Shown: positions 5,882-30,588 of the stretch, one piece after another
How the letters are laid out: every line of letters starts with the position of its first letter
How positions within the stretch are numbered: the first letter of the stretch is position 1
Assembly (NCBI GenBank): GCA_964556105.1
Contig: CAZKWG010000002.1
Location: 1-40,159 of the forward strand
From: an uncultured Enterobacterales bacterium
GTDB taxonomy: Bacteria > Myxococcota_A > UBA796 > CAZKWG01
Direction of reading: 5' to 3'
DNA length: 40,159 nucleotides
Notes under the pieces: model-generated
Databases searched by the model: none
Told to the model about the DNA's origin: nothing
Seen by the model: only the letters and a program-made list of their open reading frames with translations
Made by a program: the position numbers and the translations under genes

Positions 5882-6028
5882 AGGCTCTGGCTATTCCGGC
5901 GCCGCGCGGTCGTCCGTCGACCGTCGACGGACCTCCGTCAGGGGCGCCCAAAGCTGGCGTTTGAACGTTGGCACGCCGCTTGCTTCCCCCATCGGCGAAC
6001 CCGCGTCGCGAACCTGACAGGAGGTCCC

Positions 6029-7435: not shown

Positions 7436-7479
7436 AGGAGAGGGACAGTGATCGCGCGTGCCGCGATCAGGAGGTCGCT

Positions 7480-7836: not shown

Positions 7837-7855
7837 GCGCGGGGAGCCCAGGGAC

Positions 7856-11998: not shown

Positions 11999-14230
11999 AC
12001 CGCGCCAGCGTCGCTGTGCGCGCCCGGCGCGCCGATGAACAGGTCGGGGGCGCCGTCGCCGTCTACGTCGCCGCTGCTCAGCGCCGCGCCGGTCTCGTCG
12101 GTGCTGCCGTCCCCGCTCAGGGTGAGATCGGGGGCGCTCAACGCGCCGGACAGCCCGCCGCCGAACCAGAGCGCCGCGCCGTTCGCCCCGCCCAACAGGA
12201 CCTCTCCGATCCCGTCCCCGTCCAGATCGCCCAGGACATGCACGGCGGAGCCGAACCCCGAGTCGCCGCTGAAGGTCGCGTCGGCGCTGGCCAGCGCGGC
12301 GGGGGCGGAGGTGAGGGGGCCGAGGACCAGGCGGGCGCGGGAGGCGTCGCCGTCGGCGACGAGCAGGTCGTCCGTGCCATCGCCGTCCACGTCTCCGGCG
12401 TGGAGCGCGCCGCCGGTGGTGCCGTCGGCGGAGCCCGTGAACGTGCGCACGGCGCTGCTCTCGCTGAGCGCCCCCGCCCGAAGACAGATCGACCACATAG
12501 ACGGTCGGCACCGGGCTGGCGCCGAGCACCCCTGGGTTGTAGGCCGAGACGACCAGCTCGCTCACGCCGTCGCCGTCCGCGTCGGCCACGGCCAGCGCCC
12601 GGCCGGTCTGGCTCTGCGCCTCCTCGGCCGAGGGCTGGAAGGTCGCGGTCGCGTCGTCGCTCTCCAGCTCTCCGCTGAGCGGCCCGGCGAGGAGATAGGC
12701 CATGCCCACGTTGGCGGACTCCAGGCCCAGGCCCAGGGCGACCGCCTCGTAGGGCGCGCCGAGGGCCAGATCCGCGTCCCCGTCGCCGTCCAGGTCGCCC
12801 ATGACCATCGCCGCGCCGAAGCCCGTGCCGCCCCCCGGTCCGCTCACCACCACCTCGGCGCCGGAGAGCCCGCCGCCTGCGTCCGCCGGGCCGCTCAACA
12901 GATAGGCCACCTCGCCCCCGGGCGCGCTCGCGGCGATCTCCGCGTAGCCGTCGCCGTCCAGATCGCCGCCCGAGGCCAGCGCGTACCCGGCGTCGTCACC
13001 CTCCGTCGTGCCCTTCCAGGCCACGTTCTCGCCCAGCTCCGAGGACGCCTCGGGGACGTCGAGCACCACGTAGACGCCGCCCTTGCCGTCGTACCGCTCG
13101 GTGGCGCCCACGACGAGGTCGGCGCGCCCGTCCCCGTCCAGGTCCTGGCCGCTCAGCAGCGACACACCGGCGCGCTCGCCGTCGGTCTCCCCGTCGAAGA
13201 TCAGCGGCAGGTCGATGAGCTCCAGCGTGCAGTCGGTCGTGCCGCCGTCGCAGTCGTCGTCGCTGGCGGTCGAGCACACCTCGACCGCGTCCGGGTTGAT
13301 GTCCTCGTCGGCGTCGTCGCAGTCCTGATCGTCGGCCACGGTCCCCGCGGGTTGCTCGCAGAAGGGCGCGCCCTCGTCGCCCTCGTCGCCGAAGCCGTCG
13401 CCGTCCGCGTCGGGGTAATAGAGGGTCAGGCCGCTGGTGTTCAGGGTTGGATCGGCGTCGTCGATCAGCTCGTCGCAGTCGTCGTCCAGGGTGTTGCAGA
13501 CCTCGTCCGCGTCCGGGGAGACGGCCGCGTCGCCGTCGTCGCAGTCGCCCTCGCAGCCCTTGACGCCGTCGCCGTCATCGTCCAATGCGCCGTTCAACCC
13601 GTCGCAGTTGTAGTCGGCGTCCTCGCAGGGCTCCTCGGCGTAGGGGTGAACGGCGGCGTCGGCGTCGTCGCAGTCGCCCGCCTGCGCCACCGTGCCCGCG
13701 GGCGCCTCGCAGGCCGTCACGCGGCTCTCCTCGACGCCGAAGCCGTCTTCGTCGGCGTCGGTGTACCAGGCCGTCCCGTCGATGGCCGAGTCATCGGCCT
13801 CGCCGTCGCAGTCGTTGTCCACCCCGTCGCAGATCTCGGCGGCGTCCGGGTTCAGGCTGGCGTCGCCGTCGTCGCAGTCCAGGCCGTTGGTGACGCTGCC
13901 CGTCGGCTGTGTGCAGGCCACCACCGTCGCGGCCGGGTCGCCGGCGCCGTCCTCGTCGAGATCGGCGTAGAAGATCGTCTCCTCGCTCATGGCGACGTCG
14001 TCGATGGCGCCGTCGCAGTCGTCGTCGAGGGCGTTGCACGCCTCGGCGGCGTCGGGGTTCACGCTGGCGTCGCCGTCGTCGCAGTCAGCGCCCCCGAACT
14101 GGGCGGCCTCGTGTCCGTCCCCATCCTGGTCGGCCCGCTCGGCGAGCTCCGCTTTGGTGATCCAGCTGCAGCTGGCGCACAGCAGCGGCAGCGCGAACGC
14201 GAAGATCGAGCGTTGGAGCCGGTCATGCAT
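11971..14230 (-). pseudogene. Lipoprotein with 5 MopE-type Cys-rich 'putative metal-binding' repeats and a 7-blade FG-GAP/integrin-alpha-like propeller; reading frame broken by a 1-nt frameshift near 12471-12475
   Basis: The N-terminus has lipobox LLCASC. There are five DCDDxDxxxxPxAxExCxxxDxDCDG modules, followed by FG-GAP/DxDGDG blades. After ...PVPTVYVVDLSSGG the track frame turns into Arg/Pro junk. The ORF at 11971..12498 in a different frame continues with three more perfect FG-GAP blades (...ALSESSAVRTFTGSADG...). Confidence 0.75.
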
Positions 14231-18106: not shown

Positions 18107-18203
18107 TCGGGGGGCTGCACGGGGGCCGAGCGCTGCAGCGATGCGATCCACGGTCGCTTCCGCTACACTGACCAGCGCCGTGCCGGTACGCCGATGGAGA
18201 CCC

Positions 18204-20651
18204 ATGCGCGCCTCGCTCTTCCTCTTCGTCCTCCTGGGTCTGCCGGCGTGCGAGTCGCGCGTGGACGGCGTCCCCGCGGTGATGGTCTCCGGTCCCACCA
18301 ACGAGGCGCGGCTGGACGCGGCCCTCGCCCGCGCGCCCTCCATCCGGCTCAGCGTGGCGGCGGCGAAGCAGCTCGAGGAGGGCGGCGCCATCCTGGCGGA
18401 CGCGCCCGCGGCGGTGCTCGGGCTGTCCAAAGACGCCACCATCAAGCCTCTCTTCGAGCAGCCCGAGGTGCGCGCGGCCCTGCTCGCCCGCGACGAGGGC
18501 GCCGCCGCGAAGGCCGTGCTGGCGACGGGGGCGAAGATCGTGGTCGTCCACCGCGCGATCACGCCCAGCCTCGACCGCGGGCGCACCGTGCTCAGCCGGC
18601 TGTACAACCACGACCAGCTCAGCCTGTTCTCGCTGGTGCGCGTCACGGACGGGCTGCTCGTCTACCGCGTGCTCGACCGCCCGCTGGGCTTCCCGCCCAA
18701 CCTCGCCCAGCTCTGCCTGCAGTACCTGCGCTATCGCCTCCAGGGCGGCCCGCTGGTCGAGCTGCCGCAGGTGCAGAGCGAGAACGGGCGCTGGGTGTTC
18801 ATGGCGACCCTGCGTCAGGCCAGCGGCGGGCGCGAGCAGGCCATCGCCTTCGCCCAGGACGGCTCGCTCCAGGCCGCCCTCGAGGAGCTGGCCATCGATC
18901 TGGAGCGCCAGCACCGGCGCGAGGTGGAGCTGTGGGGCTTCCCGAAGCTGCAGGAGGCGATGGCCGACCTGAGCCTGGAGATCCAGCGCGTCGTCGAGCG
19001 CGCTGTCGTCGAGCCCCGCGACGAGGCCACCCTGGAGGACCTCCTGGAGATGGGCATCGACGGCGCCTTCGTGATGACGAAGGACCAGAAGGAGCGCGGC
19101 TATCTGCCCGGCTCGGTCGCCTACACCCGCGCCATCGTCACCGCCGACAACTTCCTGCGCCAGACGGCCGAGCAGGGCGGCATGTCGGAGCGCCGGCCCT
19201 GGCGCGACCCCGACGCCCTCCTGGAGATCCTGCGCACCCTGCACTACCGCGAGGGGAAGGACGGCCAGATCCAGGGGCTGTACCGCGGCGTGCCGCCCGT
19301 CGCGCTCAGCGACGTGACCCTGAGCTCCGTGCGGGCGTCCATCCTCGCCTCCGGAGACTGGTATTTGAAAAACCTGTATCCGGACGGGCGCGTCACCTAC
19401 AAGGTCTGGCCCGCGGAGAACCGGTACTCCGACGAGTACAACCACGTCCGCCACACCCTGGCCACCTGGAACCTGGTCCAGGCCTGGCGCCTCGATCCCC
19501 GCCCCGAGTACCTGGAGGGAGCGAAGCGCGCGCTGGACTGGACCAACCAGAGCCGCAAGGACGAGGGCGACCGCGCCGTCTACGAGTACGGCGGCAACCG
19601 CAAGCTGGGCAGCGCAGTCGTCGGGCTGCTGGGCATCATCGATCTGGCCGAGGCCACCGGCGACCCCCAGTGGGACGATCTCATGGCGCGCCTGGGCCGC
19701 TTCACCATGGCCATGCAGCTGGAGAGCGGCACCTTCAACGGCTACGACGTCCCCGTCGGCCACCCCTACTATGGCCAGCAGAACGACATCGTCCCCGGCG
19801 AGGCCGCGCTGGCGCTGATCCGCCTGGCCGAGCACACCGACGACGACCAGTGGATCGCCGGCCTGCCGAAATTCTGGGCGTACTACAAGCCCTGGTTTCG
19901 GTCGCGGGCGGCGAAGCGCGACCCGAACGTGGCCTGGCCGGCGCTGCAGTACGACAACGCGACCCGCCTGGAGCTGGTGCAGTTCGGCCCCTGGACGGTC
20001 ATGGCCGCCAACGCCTGGCACCGCCGCACCGGGGACCTGGACGCCGCGCGCTTCGGGCTGGAGGTCGCGCGCTGGATGATCGAGAGCTACCAGTGGGACG
20101 AGGAGCGGGCGCCCTACCCCGATTATATCGGTGGATACTACAAGCTCGCCGGCGAGCTGCCCGCCATGCAGGCCTTCTGCTACGCCGAGGGCACCGCCGC
20201 CGCCTACCAGCTCGCGCTGCGCATGGATCCGGAGAGCGCGCCCTTCTTCGAGCGCAAGACGCGCGAGGCCATCCGCTTCGCCCTGAACATGCAGTACGGC
20301 GAGGGCAGCATCTACCCCTTCACCCGCGGCGACGAGGTCAAGGGCGGGATCCGCTACGCCTTGAACGAGACCAAGGTGCGCATCGACTACGTGTATCACG
20401 CGCAGTCGGCCTTGTTCCAGTGGTATGAGGCGGCGGTGAACGACCCGGCGCTGCCCGCCGCGCTCAGGGGAGCGAGCCCGCCCGCCCCGCCGTCCGCGCC
20501 CGCCTCCTCCCTCCTGGAGACCCCGAGCGCAGCTCCGGCCGTGGCCCCCGCGCCGTCCTCGCCCGGCGTCGCCCCCATCGGCGCCCGCCACGGCACCGCG
20601 GGGACGGCGCCGAAGCCCGACGAGGAGCGCGAGGGCGAGGTGGGCGAGTAG
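18204..20651 (+). CDS. Large lipoprotein: AMMECR1-like central region plus C-terminal alpha/alpha-toroid-like domain; function unknown
   Basis: I chose the internal ATG at 18204 because it gives a lipoprotein signal, MRASLFLFVLLGLPAC. GIDGAFVMTKDQKERGYLPGSVA resembles the AMMECR1 core. The C-terminal half has repeated W/Y-rich helical pairs. It ends in a Pro/Ala-rich tail. Confidence 0.65.
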   Translation: MRASLFLFVLLGLPACESRVDGVPAVMVSGPTNEARLDAALARAPSIRLSVAAAKQLEEGGAILADAPAAVLGLSKDATIKPLFEQPEVRAALLARDEGAAAKAVLATGAKIVVVHRAITPSLDRGRTVLSRLYNHDQLSLFSLVRVTDGLLVYRVLDRPLGFPPNLAQLCLQYLRYRLQGGPLVELPQVQSENGRWVFMATLRQASGGREQAIAFAQDGSLQAALEELAIDLERQHRREVELWGFPKLQEAMADLSLEIQRVVERAVVEPRDEATLEDLLEMGIDGAFVMTKDQKERGYLPGSVAYTRAIVTADNFLRQTAEQGGMSERRPWRDPDALLEILRTLHYREGKDGQIQGLYRGVPPVALSDVTLSSVRASILASGDWYLKNLYPDGRVTYKVWPAENRYSDEYNHVRHTLATWNLVQAWRLDPRPEYLEGAKRALDWTNQSRKDEGDRAVYEYGGNRKLGSAVVGLLGIIDLAEATGDPQWDDLMARLGRFTMAMQLESGTFNGYDVPVGHPYYGQQNDIVPGEAALALIRLAEHTDDDQWIAGLPKFWAYYKPWFRSRAAKRDPNVAWPALQYDNATRLELVQFGPWTVMAANAWHRRTGDLDAARFGLEVARWMIESYQWDEERAPYPDYIGGYYKLAGELPAMQAFCYAEGTAAAYQLALRMDPESAPFFERKTREAIRFALNMQYGEGSIYPFTRGDEVKGGIRYALNETKVRIDYVYHAQSALFQWYEAAVNDPALPAALRGASPPAPPSAPASSLLETPSAAPAVAPAPSSPGVAPIGARHGTAGTAPKPDEEREGEVGE

Positions 20652-20718
20652 GGGCTCCCGCGCGGGGGGCGAGCGGGATATCCGCTCTCTCCCGACCCTT
20701 CCGCGCAGGAGCGCTCCC

Positions 20719-21186
20719 ATGTCCGAGGCCCGCTGCTGGCTCGTGAAGACCGAGCCCGAGAGCTACTCCATCGACGATCTGGCCCGCCAGGGCAGCACCG
20801 CCTGGGAGGGCGTGCGCAATTATCAGGCTCGAAACTCGATGCGCGACGACATGAAGCTGGGCGACCCCGTGCTGGTCTACCACTCCAACGCCACGCCGCC
20901 GGGCGTGGTCGGGCTGGCGAAGGTCGCCCGCGAGGCCTACCCGGACAGCACCGCCTTCGACCCCCGCTCGAAGTACTTCGACGAGAAGTCGGACCCTGCC
21001 AACCCGCGCTGGGTGCTGGTCGATCTCGCCTTCGTGGAGAAATTCCCCCGCGTCGTCGCCTTGGACGAGCTGAAGAGCGACCCCAGCCTGCTCGGGATGG
21101 AGGTCACCCGCAAGGGCTCGCGCCTCAGCGTCACCCCGGTCTCCGCGGCGCACTTCGCCCGCGTGCTCGCGCTCGCCCGCGGCTGA
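20719..21186 (+). CDS. EVE (PUA-like, DUF55) domain protein
   Basis: 155 aa. WLVKTEPESYSIDDL...WEGVRNYQARNSMRDDMKLGDPVLVYHS is the classical EVE-domain N-terminus. Confidence 0.85.
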   Translation: MSEARCWLVKTEPESYSIDDLARQGSTAWEGVRNYQARNSMRDDMKLGDPVLVYHSNATPPGVVGLAKVAREAYPDSTAFDPRSKYFDEKSDPANPRWVLVDLAFVEKFPRVVALDELKSDPSLLGMEVTRKGSRLSVTPVSAAHFARVLALARG

Positions 21187-21207
21187 CCCGAGCGGGCGCA
21201 CGGCGCC

Positions 21208-21239
21208 TCCGTGATCCCGTGACGGAGATCCCGTCACGG
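21208..21239. promoter_or_regulatory. Candidate upstream activator sequence 1: TCCGTGATCCCGTGACGGA plus inverted repeat CCGTGACGG-N5-CCGTCACGG
   Basis: The 19-mer at 21208-21226 matches 22476-22494 at 18 of 19 positions. There is a 9-bp-arm inverted repeat at 21217-21225 / 21231-21239. The element is centred about 70 bp upstream of the -24 GG of the porin promoter. Confidence 0.5.
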
Positions 21240-21286
21240 CCTGGGTCTCCTGGGGAGAGATCCGCGTAGACGGCCGATCCTGCTCC

Positions 21287-21301
21287 TGGCACAGGTCTTG
21301 C
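21287..21301 (+). promoter_or_regulatory. Sigma-54 (-24/-12) promoter of the porin gene
   Basis: cTGGCACaggtcTTGCt is a perfect match to TGGCAC-N5-TTGC. It lies 33 nt upstream of the ATG at 21334. Confidence 0.75.
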
Positions 21302-21333
21302 TTTCCCGTGAGTCACCTCACGGAGAAAGAACG

Positions 21334-22470
21334 ATGGTCCTGCCGCTGTACCTCCTCACCGCCCACGCCGCCCTGGCCGCCGACGCCGCTGGCGACAAGC
21401 CGCTTACCCTCGGGCTGAGCTTTCAGCCCCGCCTCACGGCGACCTTGAACGGCGACCCGGACAGCACCGACGCCGACGCCGTCAGCGACGCCGGCCTGCG
21501 CGTCCGCCGCATGCTGGTCACGGCGAGCGGGACGATGGCCGAGCGCGTCGACTACCGCTTCCGCATCGACGCCGCCCGCGCGTTCACCTTCAACGACCTG
21601 GACGGCAAGAGCCAGCAGGCGACGAGGCCCCTGCTGGACGACGCGCAGCTCGTGCTGAAGCTGGCCGACCCGCTGAAGATCTCGGCGGGCCAGTGGAAGG
21701 TGCCGTTCACCGCCTCGCGGATGATGAGCGACACGACCCTGCTCTTCCCCGACCGGCCCCTGCCGCTGGACGGAGCGAAGTACGGCGACCTCAAGCTGAC
21801 GGGCTTCGACTGGTCGCGCGACGCGGGCTTGGCGCTGCTGGGCGATCTTGGCGAGAAGCGGCTGGAGTACGCCCTGGGCGCGTTCGGCGGGGACGGTCAG
21901 AACGTCTGGCCCACCACCGACGAGGCGCCGCTGTGGGTCGCGCGCCTCGCCCTGGCGCCGCTGGGGGAGCTCAAGTACGACGAGGTCGATTTTGTGCGAG
22001 GCGCGCCGAAGCTGGCCGTTGGGCTGGGCGCCACGCTGGAGCGCACCCCTCTCTACGACGAGGCCGAGGCGCTGAGCGGTCATGTCTCCGACCTGCGCGC
22101 CAGCGCCGACCTGCGCTTCGCCGTCGCGGGGCTCTCGCTGAACGCCGAGGCGATCTACGGGCAGCTCGGGGCCGAGGGCGCCGATCCGACCCGCAGCCTG
22201 GGGGCCTACGGGCAGCTCGGCTACTTCCTCCCGGTCGGCCTGGCGCCCGGCCTGCGCTGGGCTCGTCTGGATCCCTCCCTGGACGCCGAGGATGACGGCC
22301 TCACCCACCTGGAGGCCGTGCTGAACGCCTACCTGCCCGACCCGGCGAAGGAGGGCGCCACGCTCGGCCACAAGGCGCAGCTCCAGCTCGCCTGGACCAC
22401 GGCCCTTCAGGACGGGCTCGACCGCCCGCTCTACCACCAGGTCCAGCTCGCGACGGCCGTCGGGTTCTGA
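21334..22470 (+). CDS. Anion-selective outer-membrane porin (OprO/OprP 'phosphate-selective porin O and P' family-like)
   Basis: The ATG at 21334 follows GGAG (21322-21325). The signal peptide is MVLPLYLLTAHAALA. The sequence has a beta-strand alternation pattern, GQWKVPFTASRMMSDTTLLFPDRP resembles the family motif, and the C-terminus ends in an aromatic residue (...TAVGF). Confidence 0.65.
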   Translation: MVLPLYLLTAHAALAADAAGDKPLTLGLSFQPRLTATLNGDPDSTDADAVSDAGLRVRRMLVTASGTMAERVDYRFRIDAARAFTFNDLDGKSQQATRPLLDDAQLVLKLADPLKISAGQWKVPFTASRMMSDTTLLFPDRPLPLDGAKYGDLKLTGFDWSRDAGLALLGDLGEKRLEYALGAFGGDGQNVWPTTDEAPLWVARLALAPLGELKYDEVDFVRGAPKLAVGLGATLERTPLYDEAEALSGHVSDLRASADLRFAVAGLSLNAEAIYGQLGAEGADPTRSLGAYGQLGYFLPVGLAPGLRWARLDPSLDAEDDGLTHLEAVLNAYLPDPAKEGATLGHKAQLQLAWTTALQDGLDRPLYHQVQLATAVGF

Positions 22471-22474
22471 CCGA

Positions 22475-22517
22475 ATCCGTGATCCCGTCACGGAAAATCC
22501 GTGTTCCCGGGTGATCC
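22475..22517. promoter_or_regulatory. Candidate upstream activator sequence 2: TCCGTGA-TCCCG-TCACGGA with flanking ATCCGTG / GTGATCC repeats
   Basis: The 19-mer at 22476-22494 is itself a 7-bp-arm inverted repeat. ATCCGTG recurs at 22475 and 22497. GTGATCC recurs at 22479 and 22511. The element is centred about 80 bp upstream of the -24 GG. Confidence 0.5.
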
Positions 22518-22563
22518 TGCGCCACACGCCAGGAAGAACCTCAGGTTCTGCCGTGCCATGCCC

Positions 22564-22578
22564 TGGCACGCATCTTGC
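22564..22578 (+). promoter_or_regulatory. Sigma-54 (-24/-12) promoter of the sulfate ABC transporter operon
   Basis: cTGGCACgcatcTTGCt is a perfect TGGCAC-N5-TTGC. It lies 37 nt upstream of the ATG at 22615. Confidence 0.75.
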
Positions 22579-22614
22579 TTACTATGCCGCGGCCCCTGCC
22601 GCAAAGGACCCTCC

Positions 22615-23646
22615 ATGCTGCGATTCCTGCTCCCCCTCTTCATCGGCTGCGGCGCGTCCCCGGACGAGCCGGCTGCGCCCGCGACCGCTTCGACCCCCGC
22701 CGCGGTCACCCGCACCCTGACCCTCGCCGCCTACACGACGCCGCGCGAGGCGTACGGCAAGGCGATCCTGCCGGCCTTCGCGCGCCACTGGAAGGAGAAG
22801 ACCGGCGAGGACGTGACCTTCGAGGAGTCCTACCAGGGCTCCGGTGCCCAGGCGCGCGCCGTCAAGGAGGGCTTCGAGGCCGACGTCGTCGCCCTCTCGC
22901 TCGACCCGGACGTGGACGTGCTGGCGAAGGCGGGCCTGATCACCCACGACTGGCGGGCGGCGGGCGCGGGCGGGATGGTCACCCAGTCCATCGCCGTCAT
23001 CGCCGTGCGACCGGGCAACCCGAAGAAGATCCTGGACTGGCCGGACCTGGCGCGGGCGGACGTGGACGTGCTCACGCCCAACGTGCGCACCAGCGGCGGC
23101 GCGATGTGGAACGTCCTGGCGCTCTGGGGGGCCGCCACACGCGGCTTCGCTGGGAACAAAGCGGGGGATGGCGCGGGGGCCGAGAAGCTGCTGGGCGGCG
23201 TCCTCGCGCGGGTCAGCGTCATGGACAAGGGCGCCCGCGAGAGCATCGTGAACTTCGAGAAGGGCGTCGGCGACGCGGCGATCACCTACGAGAACGAGGT
23301 GCTGGTGGCGAAGCAGGAGGGCCAGGCCATGGACTACGTGGTCCCGCCGTCCACCATCCTCATCGAGAACCCCATCGCCGTCGTGGACGTCTACGCGAAA
23401 AAGAAGGGCAACGAGGCGCTGGCGAAGGCCTTCGTGGACTTCTGCCAGGGCCCCGAGGCGCAGAAGGCGTACGCCGAGTACGGCCTGCGCCCGGTTGACC
23501 CCGCCTTCGTCCCGGCCACCCTGCCGAAGCCCACCGATCTGTTCACCATCCGCGACCTGGGCGGCTGGGATACCGTCAAGACGGACGTCTTCGGCGCGGG
23601 CGGCGCCTACGACCGCGCGGCGGGCGACGCGGGCGCACCGCGGTGA
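22615..23646 (+). CDS. cysP: Sulfate/thiosulfate ABC transporter periplasmic binding lipoprotein
   Basis: The internal ATG at 22615 gives lipobox LFIGC. It aligns by eye to E. coli Sbp/CysP blocks: SYQGSGAQARAV..GFEADVVALSL, VRPGNPKKILDWPDL, LTPNVRTSGGAMWNVLALWG. Confidence 0.9.
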   Translation: MLRFLLPLFIGCGASPDEPAAPATASTPAAVTRTLTLAAYTTPREAYGKAILPAFARHWKEKTGEDVTFEESYQGSGAQARAVKEGFEADVVALSLDPDVDVLAKAGLITHDWRAAGAGGMVTQSIAVIAVRPGNPKKILDWPDLARADVDVLTPNVRTSGGAMWNVLALWGAATRGFAGNKAGDGAGAEKLLGGVLARVSVMDKGARESIVNFEKGVGDAAITYENEVLVAKQEGQAMDYVVPPSTILIENPIAVVDVYAKKKGNEALAKAFVDFCQGPEAQKAYAEYGLRPVDPAFVPATLPKPTDLFTIRDLGGWDTVKTDVFGAGGAYDRAAGDAGAPR

Positions 23647-24443
23647 GGGGATCCTGGCTGCTCCGCGGGGCCGTCGCGGCCTGGATCGGGCTCCTCGTGG
23701 GCCTGCCGGCCGTCGTGCTCGTCCTGCGCGGGCTCGAGGGCGGCGTGGACGGGCTGGTCGCCGTCTTCGCCTCGAGCACGGCGCGGGCGGCCCTCTCGCT
23801 CTCCTTGTGGACGGCGCCGCTGGCGGCGCTGGTCAACGGGGTGGCGGGCACGGCGATCGCCTGGGCGCTGGTGCGCTGGGATCTCCCCGGTCGGCGCGCC
23901 CTGGCGGCGCTGGTCGACCTGCCGCTGGCCATCCCGACCCTGGTGGCGGGCATCCTGCTGGTCGCCCTCTTCGGCCCGCAGACGGCGCTGGGCGGCTGGT
24001 TCATCGCCCAGGGTTGGCCCATCGCCTTCGCGAAGCCGGGCATCGTGCTGGCCCTGCTCTTCGTGACCCTGCCCTTCGTCGTGCGCGCGGTGGAGCCGGT
24101 GCTCGAGGAGCTGGACCCGGCCGAGGAGGAGGCCGCCTGGACCCTCGGCGCGGGCCGCGGGATCACCTTCCTGCGCGTGCTCCTGCCGCCCGTGCTGCCG
24201 GCCGTCGCCGCGGGGATGGTCCAGACCTTCGCCCGCTCGGTGGCCGAGTTCGGCTCGCTGGCGGCGGTCTCTGGGAACATCCCGCAGCGCACCCTGGTCA
24301 TGCCGGTGTGGATCCTCGGCGAGGTGGAGGCGGGCAACGTCTCCGGCGCCGCCGCGGCCAGCGTGATCCTGCTGGCCCTCGCCCTGGTCCTGCAGCCCCT
24401 CTCCGCCGGGCTCGCCCGCCGCGCGGGAGCCGGCCGTGGGTAG
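23643..24443 (+). CDS. cysT: Sulfate ABC transporter permease CysT (CysU)
   Basis: 266 aa with 6 TM helices. The EAA-like loop is EEAAWTLGAGRGITFLRVLLP, followed by FARSVAEFGSLAAVSGNIP. The GTG start overlaps the binding-protein stop (GTGA). Confidence 0.9.
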   Translation: MRGSWLLRGAVAAWIGLLVGLPAVVLVLRGLEGGVDGLVAVFASSTARAALSLSLWTAPLAALVNGVAGTAIAWALVRWDLPGRRALAALVDLPLAIPTLVAGILLVALFGPQTALGGWFIAQGWPIAFAKPGIVLALLFVTLPFVVRAVEPVLEELDPAEEEAAWTLGAGRGITFLRVLLPPVLPAVAAGMVQTFARSVAEFGSLAAVSGNIPQRTLVMPVWILGEVEAGNVSGAAAASVILLALALVLQPLSAGLARRAGAGRG

Positions 24444-25242
24444 CCGCCGACGCAGCCCGGATCGCCTCAGCCGCGCCGTGCTCGCGCTCATCGGGCTGTA
24501 CATCGGCCTGCTGCTGCTGGTCCCGCTGGGCGCGCTCGCGCTGGAGGTGCTGCGCAACCTCGGCGAGGTGGTCAGCGAGCTCTCCCGCGAAGAGGCGCTG
24601 AACGCGCTCGGGCTCTCGGCCGCGGTGGCGGCGGCCTGCGTCCTGCTGAACGGCGTCTTCGGGGTGGCGGGCGCCATCGTCCTCACCCGTCACCGCTTCC
24701 TCGGGCGGCGGCTGCTGGACGCGCTCGTCGATCTGCCGCTGGCCCTCTCGCCCGTCATGACCGGCCTGGCCTTCCTCCTGCTCTTCGGTCGCAGCGGGAT
24801 CCTCCGCCCTGTATTGGACGCTGTACAGTTCAAGGTGGCCTTCGCCTGGCCGGGCGTGCTGCTGGCCACGCTCTTCGTGACCCTGCCGTTCACGCTGCGC
24901 GAGGTGGCGCTGGTGCTGGCCGAGCTGGGCGACAGCGAGGAGCAGGCCGCCGCGACCCTCGGCGCCTCGCCGTGGCAGACCTTCTGGCTGGTCACCCTGC
25001 CGAACATCCGCGGCGGCCTCGTGCTGGGCACCACGCTGACCCTGGCGCGCGCGCTCGGCGAGTTCGGCGCCGTGCTCGTCCTCGGCGGGTCGGTGGCCAA
25101 CGACACCCAGACCGCCACCACCTTCATCCACGCCGCCGTCGAGGAGCGTCAGGAGCCCGCCGCCTTCGGCATGGCCCTCATCCTGGCCGCCGCCGCGGTG
25201 GCCCTGCTCTACGTCCTCTCGTCCCGCCGGAGCCCCTCATGA
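24436..25242 (+). CDS. cysW: Sulfate ABC transporter permease CysW
   Basis: 268 aa. It has EEQAAATLGASPWQTFWLVTLPNIR and LARALGEFGAVLVLGGSV. It overlaps cysT by 8 nt. Confidence 0.9.
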   Translation: MGSRRRSPDRLSRAVLALIGLYIGLLLLVPLGALALEVLRNLGEVVSELSREEALNALGLSAAVAAACVLLNGVFGVAGAIVLTRHRFLGRRLLDALVDLPLALSPVMTGLAFLLLFGRSGILRPVLDAVQFKVAFAWPGVLLATLFVTLPFTLREVALVLAELGDSEEQAAATLGASPWQTFWLVTLPNIRGGLVLGTTLTLARALGEFGAVLVLGGSVANDTQTATTFIHAAVEERQEPAAFGMALILAAAAVALLYVLSSRRSPS

Positions 25243-26267
25243 GCATTCGCGTCTCCCAGCTCGTGAAGTCCTTCGGCGCGGTGCGCGTCGTAGACGACGT
25301 CAGCTTCGAGGTCGGCGCCGGAGAGCTGGTCGCCCTGCTCGGACCCTCCGGTGGCGGAAAGAGCACGATCCTGCGCGTGATCGCCGGGCTGGAGACGGCG
25401 GACGCGGGCGAGGTCTGGCTGGACGGCCGCCGCGTGGACGGCCTCGTGGCCCGCGAGCGCGGGGTGGGCTTCGTCTTTCAGCACTACGCCCTCTTCCGCC
25501 ACATGACCGTGAGCCAGAACATCGCGTTCGGGCTGGCCGTTCAGGGCGTCGGCAAGGCGGCGCAGCGCGAGCGCGTCGAGGCGCTGCTGGAGACCATGGG
25601 CCTGCGCGGCCTGGGCGATCGGTACCCCTCCCAGCTCTCCGGCGGTCAACGTCAGCGCGTCGCCCTGGCCCGCGCCCTGGCGCCCAGGCCCGCCCTGCTG
25701 CTCCTCGATGAGCCGTTCGGCGCCGTGGACGCCAAGGTGCGCGAGGAGCTGCGGCGCTGGCTGCGCAAGCTGCACGACGAGGTCCACACCACCTCCATCT
25801 TCGTCACCCACGATCAGGAGGAGGCCTTCGCCATCGCCGACCGCGTGATGATCATCCAGTCCGGTCGGCTGGAGCAGGCCGGGCCGCCGGCGGAGATCCT
25901 CGATCATCCGGCCACCGAGTTCGTCGCGCGCTTCGTGGGTGAGGTCAACGTCCTGGACGGCCTGGTCCGCGAGGGCCGCGCCTGGGTGGGCCCGCTGGCG
26001 GTGCCGGTGGAGGGCTTCGTCGATGGCCGTCGCGTGCGCGTCGTCGTGCGCGCCTACGACTTCCGCTTCTGGAAGGATCCGCTGGGCGTCGCCACGGTGG
26101 AGCGCCTGCTGCCGCTCGGCGACCGGGTGCGCGTCGAGGCGCGGCTCGACCAGGGGGAGCCCCTCTTCGCGCAGTTCCCGCGCCGGTCCTCGCTGCTGGA
26201 CGGCGTCGCCCCCGGCGTGCGCGTCGGCGTGGAGGTCGCCCACGCGCGCGTCTGGCCGGCGCAATAG
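25239..26267 (+). CDS. cysA: Sulfate ABC transporter ATP-binding protein CysA
   Basis: The ATG at 25239 overlaps the cysW stop (ATGA). It has Walker A GPSGGGKST, signature LSGGQRQRVALARAL and Walker B LLLLDEPF, plus a C-terminal TOBE-like regulatory domain. Confidence 0.92.
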   Translation: MSIRVSQLVKSFGAVRVVDDVSFEVGAGELVALLGPSGGGKSTILRVIAGLETADAGEVWLDGRRVDGLVARERGVGFVFQHYALFRHMTVSQNIAFGLAVQGVGKAAQRERVEALLETMGLRGLGDRYPSQLSGGQRQRVALARALAPRPALLLLDEPFGAVDAKVREELRRWLRKLHDEVHTTSIFVTHDQEEAFAIADRVMIIQSGRLEQAGPPAEILDHPATEFVARFVGEVNVLDGLVREGRAWVGPLAVPVEGFVDGRRVRVVVRAYDFRFWKDPLGVATVERLLPLGDRVRVEARLDQGEPLFAQFPRRSSLLDGVAPGVRVGVEVAHARVWPAQ

Positions 26268-26276
26268 GGGGAGGAT

Positions 26277-27785
26277 GTGAATTCGCCTGCCGTCATCCCG
26301 CCCGAGCTGCTCACCGAGGTGTGGCGCGAGGTCTGCCGCCACCTGGACATCGAGGAGTCCGCCCGCGGCCTGCTCACCCTGCTGCGCCCCCACCTGCGGC
26401 TCGAGCACCTGATCGTCCGCCGCTGGGACGCCGAGCGCCTGCGCCTGGACACCGTGGCCTCGGCCGGCGGCGGCGCCTGGATGGACGGGCTGGGTGCGCG
26501 CAGCGACCTGAGCGGCCCGCGGCGGGACGAGCTGCTGCGCTGGGCCGCCGCGGGGAGCTCCAGCGCCTGGCGCGGGCGCGAGCAGGACACCCTGGCGCGC
26601 GCGCTGGTGCCGGAGGGTGTCCCCGGTCCAATCACCGTCGGGCCCCTGCTGGAGGGCGGCGTCCTGGTCGGCGTGCTTGTGGTCGGCCTGGGCGGCCAGG
26701 ACGGACCTCGACGGACCGACGCCCTGCTGGAGCCCTTCGCCGCCGCGCTGGCCAACGATCACCGCCTGCACGAGCTGAGCCGCCTGCGCGAGGCCGCCGA
26801 GCAGGATCGGGCCGCCCTGCTCTCCCGCCTGGCGCGCCAGGACGTCTCTGACGCCATCGTCGGCGCCGAGGCCGGGCTGGCCTCCGTCATGGCGCGGGTC
26901 GATCAGGTCGCCCCCACCGACGCGCCCGTGCTCATCCTCGGCGAGACCGGCTCCGGCAAGGAGGTGGTCGCCCGCGCCGTCCACGCCCGCTCGCGCCGCG
27001 CCTCGGGGCCCTTTCTGCGCGTCAACTGCGGGGCGATCCCGCCCGAGCTCATCGACAGCGAGCTGTTCGGGCACGAGCGGGGCAGCTTCACCGGCGCGGT
27101 CAACCTGCGCAAAGGCTGGTTCGAGCGCGCCGACGGCGGCACCCTCTTCCTGGACGAGGTGGGCGAGCTGCCCGCCGCCGCCCAGGTGCGCCTGCTGCGC
27201 GTGCTGCAGGACGGCAGCTTTCAGCGCGTCGGCGGCCAGAGCTCGCACACGGTGGACGTGCGCATCGTCGCCGCCACCCACCGCGACGTCACCACCATGG
27301 TCCAGCAGGGGCAGTTCCGCCAGGACCTGTGGTATCGCATCAGCGTGTTTCCGGTCACGCTCCCCACGCTGCGGCAGCGTCGGGGCGACATCCCCGCGCT
27401 CACCCGCCACTTCTCGGCGCGGGCCGGTGAGCGTCTCTTCGGGCGCGCCCTACAACCCACGGTGGAGGACATCGCGCTGCTCCAGGGCTACGACTGGCCC
27501 GGGAACGTGCGCGAGCTGGCCTCGGTCATCGAGCGCGCCGCCATCCTCGGCGGCGGCCGCACCCTGGACGTGAGCACCGCGCTGGGACCAGGGGTCAGCC
27601 TCGGGCCGGCCAGCCGGGGCCCCGACGAGCGGGAGCAGATCCTGGACGCCTTGAAGAAGACGCGCGGGCGCATCGAGGGCCCCTTCGGCGCGGCGAAGCT
27701 GCTCGGCGTCAACCCCCACACCCTGCGCTCGAGGATGCGGCGCCTCGCCGTGGAGTGGTCGGAGTTCCGCAAGGGCGAGGGCTGA
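26277..27785 (+). CDS. Sigma-54-dependent transcriptional activator (GAF sensor - AAA+ sigma-54 interaction domain - Fis-type HTH); no receiver domain
   Basis: 502 aa. It has Walker A GETGSGKEVVARAVH, the sigma-54 contact loop DSELFGHERGSFTGA, the FLDEVGEL Walker B, and the C-terminal HTH AAKLLGVNPHTLRSRMRRL. The N-terminal ~170 aa look GAF-like. The start is uncertain: GTG at 26277 lies 9 nt after the cysA stop, and the SD spacing is short. Confidence 0.9.
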   Translation: MNSPAVIPPELLTEVWREVCRHLDIEESARGLLTLLRPHLRLEHLIVRRWDAERLRLDTVASAGGGAWMDGLGARSDLSGPRRDELLRWAAAGSSSAWRGREQDTLARALVPEGVPGPITVGPLLEGGVLVGVLVVGLGGQDGPRRTDALLEPFAAALANDHRLHELSRLREAAEQDRAALLSRLARQDVSDAIVGAEAGLASVMARVDQVAPTDAPVLILGETGSGKEVVARAVHARSRRASGPFLRVNCGAIPPELIDSELFGHERGSFTGAVNLRKGWFERADGGTLFLDEVGELPAAAQVRLLRVLQDGSFQRVGGQSSHTVDVRIVAATHRDVTTMVQQGQFRQDLWYRISVFPVTLPTLRQRRGDIPALTRHFSARAGERLFGRALQPTVEDIALLQGYDWPGNVRELASVIERAAILGGGRTLDVSTALGPGVSLGPASRGPDEREQILDALKKTRGRIEGPFGAAKLLGVNPHTLRSRMRRLAVEWSEFRKGEG

Positions 27786-27825: not shown

Positions 27826-28209
27826 GTGACGAGGCTCCTCTCCATCCTCCTGGCCGGCGGGCTCGGCAGCGTCGCGCGCTACCTGGTCACGACCGGGCTG
27901 GCGGCGACCCTGGGGCCGGCGCTCCCCTACGGCACCTTCGCCGTGAACCTGCTCGGCTCGGGGCTGATGGGGCTGCTCTTTGCGCTCGTGGGCGCGGCGC
28001 CGGCGAACGGCCCCACCCTGGCGCTGGTGCTGGGCACGGGCTTCCTCGGCGGGTTCACGACGTTCTCGGCGTTCAGCCTGGACACCTTCCGGCTGGTGCA
28101 GGAGGGGTCGGCGGGGACGGCCTTCGCCTACGCGGCGGCGACGCTGGCCGGCTGCCTGGGGGCGACGGCGCTCGGGTTCATGCTCGGGCAGCGGATCGTT
28201 GCGGGCTAG
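27826..28209 (+). CDS. crcB: Fluoride ion channel CrcB/FluC
   Basis: 127 aa with 4 TM helices. GGLGSVARYLV and GFLGGFTTFSAFSLD are signature blocks. Confidence 0.9.
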   Translation: MTRLLSILLAGGLGSVARYLVTTGLAATLGPALPYGTFAVNLLGSGLMGLLFALVGAAPANGPTLALVLGTGFLGGFTTFSAFSLDTFRLVQEGSAGTAFAYAAATLAGCLGATALGFMLGQRIVAG

Positions 28210-28214
28210 ATTAA

Positions 28215-28757
28215 CTAGCCTGCATCTTCGCCCGCCAGCTCCTCCTCCTCGCGCGTGCCGCTGCGCTCATGGCACCAGGCGCAGCTCGTCTGCCCGCACT
28301 CCGGGCGCGGCTGGCGGCGGACCAGCATGACGGGGACCTGGGCGTGGCGGGCCACCTCCTCGGCGACGCTGCCCAGCACGGCGCGGGCGACGCCGGTGCG
28401 GCCGTGGGTGCCCATGAGGATGAGGTCCGCCTGAAGCGCCTCCGCCTCGCGCTGGATGGTGGGGGCGACGGGGCCGGCGTGGACGACCAGCTGGGGGTCG
28501 GTGGCGCCGTGGGCGCGGGCGATCTCGGCGAAGGGGCGCATGCGCTCCAGCGCGCCGTGCTCGGCCCAGGCCCGCGCGCTCATCGACTGGCCCTCGTGCT
28601 GCACGATGGCGCTGGCGCTCAGGCCCTCGGGCAGCTCGGCGACGTGCAGGAGGGTGACGCGCGCCCCGGTCTGGCGAGCCAGCTCCCCGGCGCCGCCCGC
28701 GACCTGGAGCGAGCAGGTGGAGAAGTCCACAGGGACGAGGATGTGATGGATCTCCAT
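28215..28757 (-). CDS. Universal stress protein (UspA family) with Cys-containing acidic C-terminal tail
   Basis: 180 aa. It has ILVPVDFS...LLHV...LILMGTHGRTGVARAVLGSVAEEVARHAQVPVMLVR. The tail is ECGQTSCAWCHERSGTREEEELAGEDAG. Confidence 0.85.
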   Translation of the reverse strand: MEIHHILVPVDFSTCSLQVAGGAGELARQTGARVTLLHVAELPEGLSASAIVQHEGQSMSARAWAEHGALERMRPFAEIARAHGATDPQLVVHAGPVAPTIQREAEALQADLILMGTHGRTGVARAVLGSVAEEVARHAQVPVMLVRRQPRPECGQTSCAWCHERSGTREEEELAGEDAG

Positions 28758-28773
28758 GGCGGACTCCTGAGGT

Positions 28774-29211
28774 TCAAGGGTTGGTTCTGGCCGCGCGACG
28801 CGCCTCGACCAGGTGGTGAAGCCCCATGCCGCCCAGCATGGCGCCGACGAAGATCAAGGTCGGGGTGGCGCCCGAGACGGCGGCGGTGATCGCCGGCCCC
28901 GGGCAGTAGCCGCCCAGCCCCCAGCCCGCGCCGAAGAGGACCGCGCCGCCCAGCAGGCGGCCATCGACGTCCTTGCGCGTGGGCAGGGCCCAGTGGTCCG
29001 CCATCAGCGGCGCGCGCAGGCGGGGCACCAGCCGGTAGGCCAGGAAGTGGACGGCGATGGCGCCCACCATGACGAAGGCCAGCGAGGGATCCCAGAGGCT
29101 GTCCACGGTCAGGAAGCCCAGCACCTTGTCGGGGCGGGTCATGCCCGAGACCACCAGCCCCAGGCCAAAGATCGTGCCCGCGAGCAGAGAGACGAGGTTC
29201 GAGCGGCTCAA
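28774..29211 (-). CDS. YeeE/YedE-family sulfur-compound transporter half-protein (DUF6691-like)
   Basis: 145 aa with 4 TM helices. It has GLVVSGMTRPDKVLGFL and GAGWGLGGYCPGPA with the conserved Cys. The TTG start overlaps the upstream stop (TTGA) and is preceded by GGAGG. Confidence 0.8.
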   Translation of the reverse strand: MSRSNLVSLLAGTIFGLGLVVSGMTRPDKVLGFLTVDSLWDPSLAFVMVGAIAVHFLAYRLVPRLRAPLMADHWALPTRKDVDGRLLGGAVLFGAGWGLGGYCPGPAITAAVSGATPTLIFVGAMLGGMGLHHLVEARRAARTNP

Positions 29212-29642
29212 GACGCACCTCCACCGAAGAGGGAGACCAGGGTCGCGACCAGGAAGCCGACGCCCATGAAGGTGATCACGCTGGCCAGCGAGCGCGGGCT
29301 GAGGCGGGAGAGCCCGCAGACCCCGTGGCCGCTGGTGCAGCCGTTGCCGAGGCGCGTGCCGTAGCCGACCAGCAGCCCGGCGATGACCAGCTGCGCGGTG
29401 GAGCGGTCGGTCACCACGGCGAGGCTCTGGGGCGCCAGCAGGCTCGCGCCGAGGCCGGCCAGCAGCAGCCCGGCGATGAAGGCGCCCCGCCAGCCCAGGT
29501 CGCCGGGCTTCGGGGTCAGCAGGCCGCCGACGATGCCGCTGATCCCGGCCACCCGACCCTGGACCAGGAGCATCACCGAGGCGGAGAGGCCGATCAGGGC
29601 GCCGCCGAGGGCCGCGGGGATGGGAGAGAAGTCTGGGGACAT
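29208..29642 (-). CDS. YeeE/YedE-family sulfur-compound transporter half-protein
   Basis: This is the C-terminal portion of track ORF 29208..31058. It has GRVAGISGIVGG and GTRLGNGCTSGHGVCGLSRLS (conserved Cys motifs). I chose the start at 29642 (MSPDF...); 29654 (MERHMSPDF) is also possible. Confidence 0.8.
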   Translation of the reverse strand: MSPDFSPIPAALGGALIGLSASVMLLVQGRVAGISGIVGGLLTPKPGDLGWRGAFIAGLLLAGLGASLLAPQSLAVVTDRSTAQLVIAGLLVGYGTRLGNGCTSGHGVCGLSRLSPRSLASVITFMGVGFLVATLVSLFGGGAS

Positions 29643-29674
29643 GTGCCGCTCCATCCGTGAGGTTCGGGGGAGAA

Positions 29675-30415
29675 TCAGGCTTGCTGATAGAGGACGAAGG
29701 CCGCCATCATCAGGACGAAGGTGGCGAAGCCGCGCCGCAGGGCGGCGGGCGGGATCTTGTTGGCCAGGGCGCCGCCGAGGACCGAGCCGAGGACCGCGGC
29801 GGTGGAGATCATCGCTGCCAGCTGCAGGTCTACCTCGACGTGCCCCATGTGTCCGGCGAAGCCGGCGAAGCTCTTCATGGCGATGACCAGCAGCGAGGTC
29901 CCGATGGCCAGCGTCATGGGCAGTCCGCCCAGCAGCGCCAGGGCGGCGACCACCAGGAAGCCGCCGCCCGCGCCGACCAGGCCGGTGACCACGCCCACCA
30001 CGAGGCCGTCCACGACGATCTTCCAGGGCTTCATCCCCTGCGTCGCCTCCGCCGTCGGCTCCTTGCGCCCGCGGAACATGGCCAGCGAGGTGGCGATCAT
30101 CATCAGCGCGAAGAGCACCATCAGGACGTTGGCGGGGACGAGCGCGGCGAGCTTGCCGCCGCCGAAGGCGCCGACCATGCCGGCCGCGCCGAAGATGAGC
30201 CCGATCCGCCAGGAGACGTTCCCGGCCCGCGCGTGCTGGGCCAGCCCGGCCAGCGAGGTCACGCCGACCACCAGCAGGGAGGTGGCGATGGCCGTCTTGG
30301 GCTCCATCCCGAGCGCGTAGACCAGGATGGGGGTGGTGAGGATCGAGCCGCCGCCGCCGAGCAGGCCGAGCGCGACGCCGATGAGGACTGAGAGCACCAG
30401 GGCCAGCGGGAGCAT
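29675..30415 (-). CDS. TauE/SafE (DUF81) family sulfite/organosulfonate exporter-type permease
   Basis: 246 aa with 7-8 TM helices. GLLGGGGSILTTPILVYALGM is the family N-terminal motif. The ATG is preceded by GGAGG. Confidence 0.85.
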   Translation of the reverse strand: MLPLALVLSVLIGVALGLLGGGGSILTTPILVYALGMEPKTAIATSLLVVGVTSLAGLAQHARAGNVSWRIGLIFGAAGMVGAFGGGKLAALVPANVLMVLFALMMIATSLAMFRGRKEPTAEATQGMKPWKIVVDGLVVGVVTGLVGAGGGFLVVAALALLGGLPMTLAIGTSLLVIAMKSFAGFAGHMGHVEVDLQLAAMISTAAVLGSVLGGALANKIPPAALRRGFATFVLMMAAFVLYQQA

Positions 30416-30457: not shown

Positions 30458-30472
30458 GCAAGACCCGTGCCA
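30458..30472 (-). promoter_or_regulatory. Sigma-54 (-24/-12) promoter of the tauE-yeeE/yedE-usp operon
   Basis: The minus strand reads tTGGCACgggtcTTGCa, a perfect TGGCAC-N5-TTGC. The -12 element lies about 43 nt upstream of the ATG at 30415. Confidence 0.7.
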
Positions 30473-30588
30473 ATCTTAGAATGGCCGCGTTCAACCATCG
30501 GATGTGGCGAAAGCTCCCCCCCCGAGCGGGTCGAGGAGCGCTCCAGGCGTGCCGATATGAGGCGACACGTCGCGACGTCTTGCGACGC

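Follow-up and report, generated by a model that had tools for sequence, protein, structure and literature searches.

The window analysed here is the whole 40,159-nucleotide stretch of contig CAZKWG010000002.1 (positions 1 to 40,159, forward strand; assembly GCA_964556105.1), from an uncultured Enterobacterales bacterium that GTDB places in Myxococcota_A (UBA796; CAZKWG01). Its central part carries a porin gene followed by genes for a sulfate ATP-binding cassette (ABC) transporter and a sigma-54 enhancer-binding protein (EBP). Two -24/-12 elements and two copies of a 19-mer lie 5' of the porin gene and of sbp, the sulfate-binding-protein gene. We consider it highly likely, judging from sequence, that these elements work as sigma-54 promoters and that the adjacent EBP drives them by way of an enhancer made of TCCGTGA/TCACGGA half-sites. 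The features concerned are the following.

20719-21186: EVE-domain gene (assigned with Pfam/NCBIfam).
21198-21239, no strand assigned: putative porin enhancer (upstream activating sequence, UAS), gCACGGc-gcc-TCCGTGA-tc-CCGTGACGG-agatc-CCGTCACGG, a half-site cluster that includes 19-mer copy 1.
21208-21226: 19-mer copy 1, TCCGTGATCCCGTGACGGA, read directly; 18 of 19 positions identical to copy 2.
21287-21301, plus strand: sigma-54 (-24/-12) promoter of the porin gene, TGGCAC-aggtc-TTGC; ATG at 21334, 33 nt on; GGAG ribosome-binding site (RBS) at about 21322.
21334-22470, plus strand: porin gene, phosphate/anion-selective OprO/OprP family (Porin_O_P; PF07396, 45.2 bits, cutoff 20.9).
22476-22494: 19-mer copy 2, TCCGTGATCCCGTCACGGA, read directly; general form of the 19-mer TCCGTGATCCCGT(G/C)ACGGA.
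22476-22504, no strand assigned: putative sbp-operon enhancer (UAS), TCCGTGA-tcccg-TCACGGA-aaa-TCCGTGt, three half-sites.
22564-22578, plus strand: sigma-54 (-24/-12) promoter of the sbp-cysTWA-EBP operon, TGGCAC-gcatc-TTGC; ATG at 22615, 37 nt on.
22615-23646, plus strand: sulfate-binding protein (SBP), Sbp/CysP type (TIGR00971, 218.9 bits, cutoff 155.5).
23643-24443, plus strand: sulfate ABC permease, CysT-like (TIGR00969/TIGR02139; 231.8, just under the cutoff of 240).
24436-25242, plus strand: sulfate ABC permease, CysW-like (TIGR00969, 253.5 bits, cutoff 240).
25239-26267, plus strand: sulfate ABC ATPase CysA (TIGR00968, 358.6 bits, cutoff 342.75).
26277-27785, plus strand: sigma-54 EBP, 502 aa, GAF–AAA+–HTH_8 (Pfam, NCBIfam, AlphaFold2 (AF2) and Foldseek).

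Direct reading of the letters bore out the two promoters that the sequence-only reading had proposed, each without mismatch and 33 or 37 nt before its ATG. Both have the exact 10-nt GG/GC spacing of the sigma-54 class (TGGCAC-N5-TTGC(A/T)), are intergenic and correctly oriented, and are conserved at orthologous genes. In the window, whose GC content is 72.4 %, a perfect TGGCAC-N5-TTGC occurs four times, compared with a mean of 0.06 in 100 dinucleotide shuffles (none of which reached four), and all four sites are correctly oriented 33-60 nt 5' of an RBS and ATG. No sigma-70-like promoter was found in a promoter scan of 20700-22900. An inverted repeat with a mirror-image TGGCACG (CGTGCCA-tgccc-TGGCACG, 22552-22570) overlaps the -24 of the sbp promoter and was flagged by the terminator scan; it is probably fortuitous, because it is not conserved in the related locus L001.

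Related loci came from the gene contexts of full-length EBP relatives (L001-L006 and P0042) and from a scan of species-representative genomes with a family-specific alignment of the EBP GAF domain and linker (at least 80 loci, L007-L086 being those listed), and the neighbours of the EBP were surveyed by tblastn in the 80 loci listed. A -24/-12 element with at most one mismatch (GG and GC fixed) precedes sbp, the porin gene or the equivalent first transporter gene at 27 operon starts across these loci; the background of such sites is 0.045 per kb per strand in 1.13 Mb of loci. The element is perfect 5' of the first transporter gene in L001 (sbp), L002 (porin), L003, L004 (NMT1), L006, L013, L019 and L041, and sbp is preceded by a perfect or one-mismatch element in L001, L002, L003, L006, L011-L013, L017, L019, L020, L022, L025, L064, L069 and others. 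Orthologous porin promoters read TGGCAC-N5-GTGC (L001), TGGCAC-N5-TTGC (L002) and CGGCAC-N5-TTGC (L064), with separate elements for porin and for sbp in the window, L001, L002 and L064. Sites with at most one mismatch are present too in Planctomycetota with a divergent gene layout.

The 19-mer was likewise found as it had been described, with 18 of 19 positions shared and its two copies lying about 70-80 bp upstream of the GG: its centre stands 71 nt (porin gene) and 80 nt (sbp) away from the first G of the -24 element. At up to three mismatches the window contains these two matches and no further one (0.05 expected). In copy 2, TCCGTGA-N5-TCACGGA, two 7-bp arms form an inverted repeat without mismatch; behind copy 1 comes a second unit, so that tandem GATCCCGT[G/C]ACGG units 14 bp apart create a repeat with 9-bp arms, CCGTGACGG (21217-21225)-N5-CCGTCACGG (21231-21239). 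Both symmetries agree with the earlier description. At sbp there are three half-sites, TCCGTGA (22476), TCACGGA (22488) and TCCGTGt (22498). The first two make up copy 2, while the second and third form a conserved 17-bp palindrome (22488-22504) whose centre lies 68 nt from the -24 GG.

The upstream sequences were further analysed by de novo 7-mer enrichment, in which the 220 nt 5' of the 27 promoters were compared with all 216-nt windows of the loci and the 19-mer was not assumed. The upstream element is present at orthologous loci: TCACGGA occurs in 19 of the 27 promoter regions versus 161 of 5193 background windows, a 22-fold enrichment, and the other top 7-mers are CACGGAA, ACGGAAA, ATCCGTG and CCCGTGA. 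What the promoter regions share is CCGTGA-N4-5-TCACGGA-WWW-TCCGTGA, a composite that is often joined, some two helical turns downstream, by a fourth TCACGG. Its best-conserved unit is the 17-bp palindrome TCACGGA-N3-TCCGTGA, which at up to two mismatches has only 36 matches in 1.13 Mb. The centre of this palindrome is 70 or 71 nt 5' of the first -24 G in nine loci (L001, L006, L011, L012, L013, L020, L022, L064 and L074); the sbp promoter of the window (68 nt) and L026 (67 nt) bring the range over 11 loci to 67-71 nt. Dyads of this kind, about 70-150 bp 5' of a -24/-12 element and conserved together with the regulator, are what defines a UAS. The proposal that the 19-mer is an EBP site is supported, with a refinement. 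Its half-site came out of the unbiased enrichment and the element keeps a fixed distance to the -24, but the 19-mer is not the whole site; the sequences indicate that it is a neighbouring, overlapping dyad of a predicted enhancer of three to four half-sites, whose best unit is the overlapping 17-bp palindrome.

The position of the two 19-mers next to gene ends raises another explanation, that they are 3'-end stem-loops (terminators or mRNA-stabilising structures) of the EVE and porin genes and not protein sites. The copies begin 6-22 nt past a stop codon (EVE, 21186; porin, 22470), and both can form 7-bp GC-rich hairpins. However, neither is followed by a T-run or called by the terminator scan, the spacing to the -24 is fixed at 70±1 nt, and the motif persists in loci that have a divergent or another gene upstream (L006, L003, L026 and the L001 porin). 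At the L001 porin promoter the arrangement is as in the window, at 71 nt (hand-counted), though a different gene lies upstream. It is moreover the sequence that is conserved, not the pairing: deviations in the palindrome arms comprise 14 uncompensated changes and 0 compensated ones, and since they are never compensated they fit a protein site and not a hairpin. With no terminator called there and the arm changes uncompensated, the terminator/hairpin interpretation was rejected; we regard it as hardly credible.

The genes behind the promoters encode all four components of a sulfate/thiosulfate ABC transporter in one operon, with CysT marginally below its cutoff. The SBP is a probable lipoprotein, given the LFIGC at its N-terminus. 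The cysT start overlaps the sbp stop (GTGA), the cysA ATG overlaps the cysW stop (ATGA), and the GTG start of the EBP follows the cysA stop by 9 nt and is preceded by a GGAGG RBS. Because these junctions overlap or are tightly coupled, sbp-cysT-cysW-cysA-EBP is probably a single operon, with the EBP co-transcribed and autoregulated. The porin aligns with PF07396 over residues 43-164 only and has a signal-peptide-like N-terminus, MVLPLYLLTAHAALAADA; the PF07396 match and outer-membrane signal peptide place it in the OprO/OprP family, its anion or sulfate selectivity being a prediction only.

These matches leave some room for a different substrate, in which case the transporter and porin would take up thiosulfate or a different oxyanion (molybdate, tungstate, selenate or chromate) and the regulon would not concern sulfate assimilation. 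The permeases also score on molybdate/tungstate models, CysT reaches 231.8 against its cutoff of 240, the SBP does not reach the cutoffs of the narrower Sbp and CysP models of E. coli type, and the best NCBIfam match of the porin, a very weak one, is the selenite/tellurite porin ExtI. Yet SBP, CysW and CysA exceed the cutoffs of the sulfate-specific TIGR00971, TIGR00969 and TIGR00968, whereas ModA, with a cutoff of 62.5, matches at only 31 bits. The EBP and motif also occur elsewhere with a sulfonate-type ABC, a Na+/sulfate-symporter-family protein and a cysteine dioxygenase, and SulP, arylsulfotransferase, sulfatase and TauE/YeeE-like genes lie nearby. Service to another anion is thus distinctly unlikely, and sulfate remains our reading of the substrate.

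The last gene of the operon had been named as the candidate activator, and domain analysis confirmed it as an EBP (PF00158 plus HTH_8, intact motifs). The protein consists of a GAF domain (residues ~1-145), a coiled linker, the AAA+ sigma-54 interaction domain and HTH_8. Its AAA+ domain (PF00158, 233 bits, plus AAA_lid_14) retains Walker A (GETGSGKE at 222), GSFTGA at 269 and Walker B (LFLDE at 290); GSFTGA is a Ser variant of GAFTGA, and some family members have GAFTGA. At the C-terminus, PF02954 HTH_8 scores 26.4 bits (cutoff 22), with NPHTLRSRMR at 479. An AAA+ domain with Walker A/B and a GAFTGA-type loop, a Fis-type helix-turn-helix (HTH) and an N-terminal sensor domain together assign it to the bacterial EBPs of the NtrC/NifA superfamily. 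Over the AAA+ part NCBIfam ranks NifA, NorR and FhlA highest, each scoring far below its equivalog cutoff. The HTH segment GRIEGPFGAA-LG[VI]NPHTLR-R-R is almost invariant across the family, which therefore predicts a conserved DNA site.

The N-terminal domain is more divergent. Pfam detects no GAF in the window EBP, whose N-terminal 150 residues have no Pfam match; 5 of 11 relatives match GAF_3, and a sequence-profile search of the PDB gives marginal GAF matches only (E ~0.06-0.08). The AF2 model of this region has a predicted local distance difference test (pLDDT) score of 89.7, and its top Foldseek matches are GAF domains (E ~1e-7), including those of the sigma-54 activators 4g3v (Aquifex Nlh2) and 3k2n (Chlorobium regulator). 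The modelled structure thus identifies the domain as a GAF fold.

Full-length relatives of the EBP are many, at 50-80 % identity, and the GAF+linker profile retrieved 464 clusters at E<=1e-10 from 1.84 billion representatives. Among the matches listed, the 80 loci belong to Myxococcota, Planctomycetota, Acidobacteriota, Gemmatimonadota/Longimicrobium, Hydrogenophilales and others. All 80 are metagenome-assembled genomes (MAGs), with 0 cultured isolates, and this MAG-only occurrence among the matches listed may explain why the system has gone unstudied. In about 50 of the 80 listed loci sbp-cysTWA lies directly beside the EBP gene. The order porin-sbp-cysTWA-EBP recurs in L001 (80 % identity) and in the Myxococcota MAG L002 (70 %), with porin synteny also in L064; the EBP directly follows sbp-cysTWA in L003 and L006 (66 %) and on the P0042 contig, and in L005, a Vicinamibacteraceae MAG, a divergent porin-sbp-cysTWA array lies close to it. 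A toxin-antitoxin pair stands directly 3' of the EBP gene in L001 (MazE/PIN, 11582-12204) and L002 (RHH/PIN_3, 11599-12249); in the window no such pair follows the EBP gene, and CrcB is next (27826-28209).

The targets extend beyond sulfate transport. In the Planctomycetota loci L004 (7240-11584), L041 (5374-9548) and L028 the EBP family comes right after an NMT1-type (SsuA/TauA-like) ABC with a perfect TGGCAC-N5-TTGC upstream, which suggests control of sulfonate/taurine uptake instead of sulfate. The enhancer-plus-promoter unit also stands 5' of a Na_sulph_symp (DASS) gene and Usp immediately upstream of the EBP gene in L026 (3965-6064), 5' of an FAD-oxidoreductase gene and a cysteine dioxygenase gene (CDO_I) in the Phycisphaerales MAG L074 (~6400-8000, minus strand), and 5' of a second porin-like outer-membrane-protein gene adjoining an arylsulfotransferase gene in L003. 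The DASS/Usp genes of L026 and the FAD-oxidoreductase/CDO genes of L074 are candidate further regulon members, and several loci have SulP, sulfatase, TauE and YeeE-like genes in the vicinity of the EBP. The original idea of a sigma-54 regulon joining sulfate uptake and a porin is supported by the conserved promoters, the enhancer and the linkage to the EBP, but was drawn too narrowly: as predicted from gene content, the theme of the regulon is sulfur acquisition in general, beyond the sulfate ABC and porin.

These observations can be assembled into a mechanism. The porin gene and the sbp-cysT-cysW-cysA-EBP operon would each be transcribed from an enhancer-dependent sigma-54 promoter, with transcription depending on rpoN and with the GAF–AAA+–HTH_8 protein, encoded by the last gene of the ABC operon, as activator. 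Its C-terminal HTH would bind the TCCGTGA/TCACGGA half-site cluster, the core dyad being TCACGGA-N3-TCCGTGA or the overlapping TCCGTGA-N5-TCACGGA, centred ~70 nt 5' of the -24 GG. The EBP would oligomerise at the enhancer and, by ATP hydrolysis, act through its GSFTGA loop to open the closed complex of the sigma-54 holoenzyme. The GAF domain would gate AAA+ activity, as in NorR, NifA and FhlA (PMC2941729), by responding to a small molecule, most plausibly one that reports sulfur status. With the activator gene inside the operon that it would activate, a positive feedback loop is expected. Sequence and comparison show the promoters and enhancers themselves, how they are conserved and spaced, which domains the EBP has and, in several phyla, its linkage to sulfur-uptake genes; that this EBP binds this motif, that transcription depends on rpoN and that sulfur limitation is the signal are inferences.

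Two further perfect sigma-54 sites, both outside the porin-sbp region, are listed here with their genes.

30458-30472, minus strand: third perfect sigma-54 site, TGGCAC-gggtc-TTGC, 43 nt before an ATG.
28215-30415, minus strand: genes at that promoter, TauE (29675-30415), Sulf_transp (29208-29660), DUF6691 (28774-29211) and Usp (28215-28757).
5969-5983, plus strand: fourth perfect sigma-54 site, TGGCAC-gccgc-TTGC; its RBS and ATG (6029) open a short open reading frame (ORF) only.

The TauE operon makes a third sigma-54 unit related to sulfur, and its Sulf_transp and DUF6691 represent a split YeeE/YedE-like pair. A shared enhancer between this promoter and those of sbp and the porin was considered and rejected: the element there is ACGTCGCGACGT-GTCGC (~30549-30565), in common with L001, and another activator probably acts at it. 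The next clear gene after the 5969-5983 site encodes an MFS_1_like transporter (6275-7435). A palindrome, TCCGTCGA-ccg-TCGACGGA-cc-TCCGTCAGG, of which TCCGTCGA-ccg-TCGACGGA occupies 5913-5931, lies ~40-55 nt before that site and resembles the TCCGTGA half-site plus one extra base; it is similar but distinct. Elsewhere in the window, a one-mismatch sigma-54-like site (TGGCAC-ggcgg-GTGC, 31488-31502, plus strand) lies ~200 nt 5' of a 120-aa ORF (31706-32068). A large ORF at 18141-20651 (plus strand, 836 aa; GC content at third codon positions, GC3, 0.95) has no Pfam domain and is apparently conserved beside the EVE gene in L001 (1-2257, 843 aa).

Several points weigh against the mechanism set out above. 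At up to one mismatch, the scan of the divergent Acidobacteriota/Gemmatimonadota loci found almost no -24/-12 sites, which are absent in most; these loci show weaker candidates only, such as CGGCAC-N5-ATGC and CGGTAT-N5-TTGC, with an overlapping half-site. In Acidobacteriota the half-site is fused to such a weak candidate, as in CCGTGACGGCAC-cgctc-ATGC (L005, ~5740-5760, minus strand) and CCGTGACGGTAT-ggctg-TTGC (L023, ~7840-7865, minus strand), and this fusion may be a clade-specific promoter variant or reflect another mode of control. Because -24/-12 sites are few in these divergent loci, the promoter claim is limited to Myxococcota-like and Planctomycetota loci, for which it is mainly made and where the sequence evidence is solid. 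About 30 of the 80 EBP loci among the matches listed have no sulfate ABC in the fetched flank, some of them being short contigs. No RpoN box was found in a search of the window, and the presence of rpoN in the genome is deduced only from the promoters and the EBP. The sulfur-status signal is deduced solely from the nature of the target genes, and we put it at even or slightly better. Finally, the half-sites are arranged differently in the porin and sbp enhancers, and the recognised dyad may be either.

That inequality of dyads between the two promoters is also an argument for a related possibility, in which the promoters are real and another factor, a repressor or a different activator, binds the TCCGTGA/TCACGGA cluster while the EBP acts elsewhere or via other sites. 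The pairing of EBP and motif is known from sequence alone, and the two other perfect sigma-54 promoters of the window have different upstream palindromes (ACGTCGCGACGT; TCCGTCGA-ccg-TCGACGGA), which implies several EBPs in the genome. What speaks for the adjacent EBP is that the motif accompanies this family across phyla and with varied targets (sulfate ABC, NMT1 ABC, DASS symporter, CDO), the EBP gene being the common denominator of the motif loci, and that the position fixed ~70 nt 5' of the -24 is that of an enhancer and not of an operator. The near-invariant HTH of the family moreover matches the conserved half-site. We therefore judge binding by another factor unlikely and retain the adjacent EBP as the predicted activator.

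What is understood of the regulation of sulfate assimilation comes mainly from the CysB-type (LysR) regulators of Proteobacteria and from a few Gram-positive repressors. For Myxococcota, Planctomycetota, Acidobacteriota and Gemmatimonadota, all of them abundant in soil and water, such regulation is to our knowledge essentially undescribed. Among the matches listed, the GAF-type family occurs in these four phyla and in some Pseudomonadota. We lean, by a little, towards the broader proposal that an uncharacterised, phylum-spanning family of GAF-type sigma-54 activators is the main control on the acquisition of sulfate and organosulfur wherever a lineage lacks CysB or bypasses it, acting via TCACGGA-N3-TCCGTGA and sensing a metabolite of sulfur status with a divergent GAF domain. 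If true, sigma-54 would govern a second macronutrient, sulfur, besides nitrogen, and its scope would widen from nitrogen, carbon and envelope functions to primary sulfur uptake. The GAF domain would be a new sensor whose ligand could report cellular sulfur status. The module of activator family, 17-19 bp motif at fixed spacing and sigma-54 promoters could be used to predict sulfur-acquisition regulons in MAGs. The advance is one of regulon and regulator and not of principle: the locus shows enhancer-dependent transcription of the canonical type, in which the regulator family, the DNA motif and the physiological target are new.

CysB of enteric bacteria acts at sigma-70 promoters with N-acetylserine/O-acetylserine as inducer. 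CysB and Cbl share with the window locus the target class (Sbp plus CysTWA ABC) and presumably the response to sulfur status; they differ in being LysR-type regulators at sigma-70 promoters, in contrast to the -24/-12 promoters and AAA+ activator here. No LysR gene was seen among the annotated genes around the locus and no sigma-70-like promoter in 20700-22900, so that the locus does not class as a CysB regulon. In architecture (GAF, AAA+ sigma-54 interaction domain, HTH_8) the window EBP resembles NifA, FhlA and NorR. NifA recognises TGT-N10-ACA and NorR GT-N7-AC, whereas the window motif is TCACGGA-N3-TCCGTGA. The window EBP further differs from NifA, FhlA and NorR in a GAF domain too divergent for Pfam and in targets of sulfur uptake, not nitrogen fixation, formate or nitric oxide. 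According to the accessible parts of two reports, the NorR GAF domain represses AAA+ until ligand binds (PMC2941729), and NorR has three enhancer dyads, all of which are needed (PMC2831303). This three-dyad requirement parallels the multi-dyad enhancers of the window loci.

In the literature searched, which covered few subscription-journal papers, we found no description of sigma-54/EBP control of sulfate ABC uptake. The accessible parts of the comparative sigma-54 studies of Francke 2011 (PMC3162934) and Kazakov 2015 (PMC4641369), of a paper on the Geobacter RpoN regulon (PMC2725144) and of a 2025 paper on sulfate reducers (PMC11887813) contain no such regulon; the text available from the last attributes sulfate-uptake regulation in sulfate reducers to WalR-type two-component systems and TetR repressors. 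QseF/GlrR-type sigma-54 activators respond to sulfate and phosphate via QseE, according to a table entry of Francke 2011 (PMC3162934), and thus also represent sigma-54 EBPs tied to a sulfate signal. QseF, however, is a response regulator with a receiver domain that serves outer-membrane-protein and small-RNA genes, not sulfate uptake, whereas the window EBP has a GAF domain.

Among known systems SfnR comes closest, being likewise a sigma-54 EBP dedicated to sulfur acquisition. The claim that the regulon had not been described holds for sulfate uptake in the literature searched, but SfnR is a sigma-54 precedent within sulfur assimilation. In the Pseudomonas organisms concerned, sulfate uptake remains dependent on CysB and sigma-70. 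To judge from titles that two papers cite (PMC8234197, PMC13352529), namely Endoh 2003 (Microbiology 149:991), Endoh 2005 (Mol Microbiol 55:897), Habe 2007 and Lundgren 2019, SfnR of Pseudomonas putida DS1, with SfnR1 and SfnR2 of P. aeruginosa, activates sfnFG, sfnA and msu genes, is induced under sulfate starvation and stands in turn under CysB. Neither the window nor the related loci inspected showed any sfn or msu gene. It is by their described targets that the two systems are set apart: those of SfnR are organosulfur (dimethyl sulfone/methanesulfonate) monooxygenases, whereas the window EBP is predicted to act directly on a sulfate ABC transporter operon and a porin gene.

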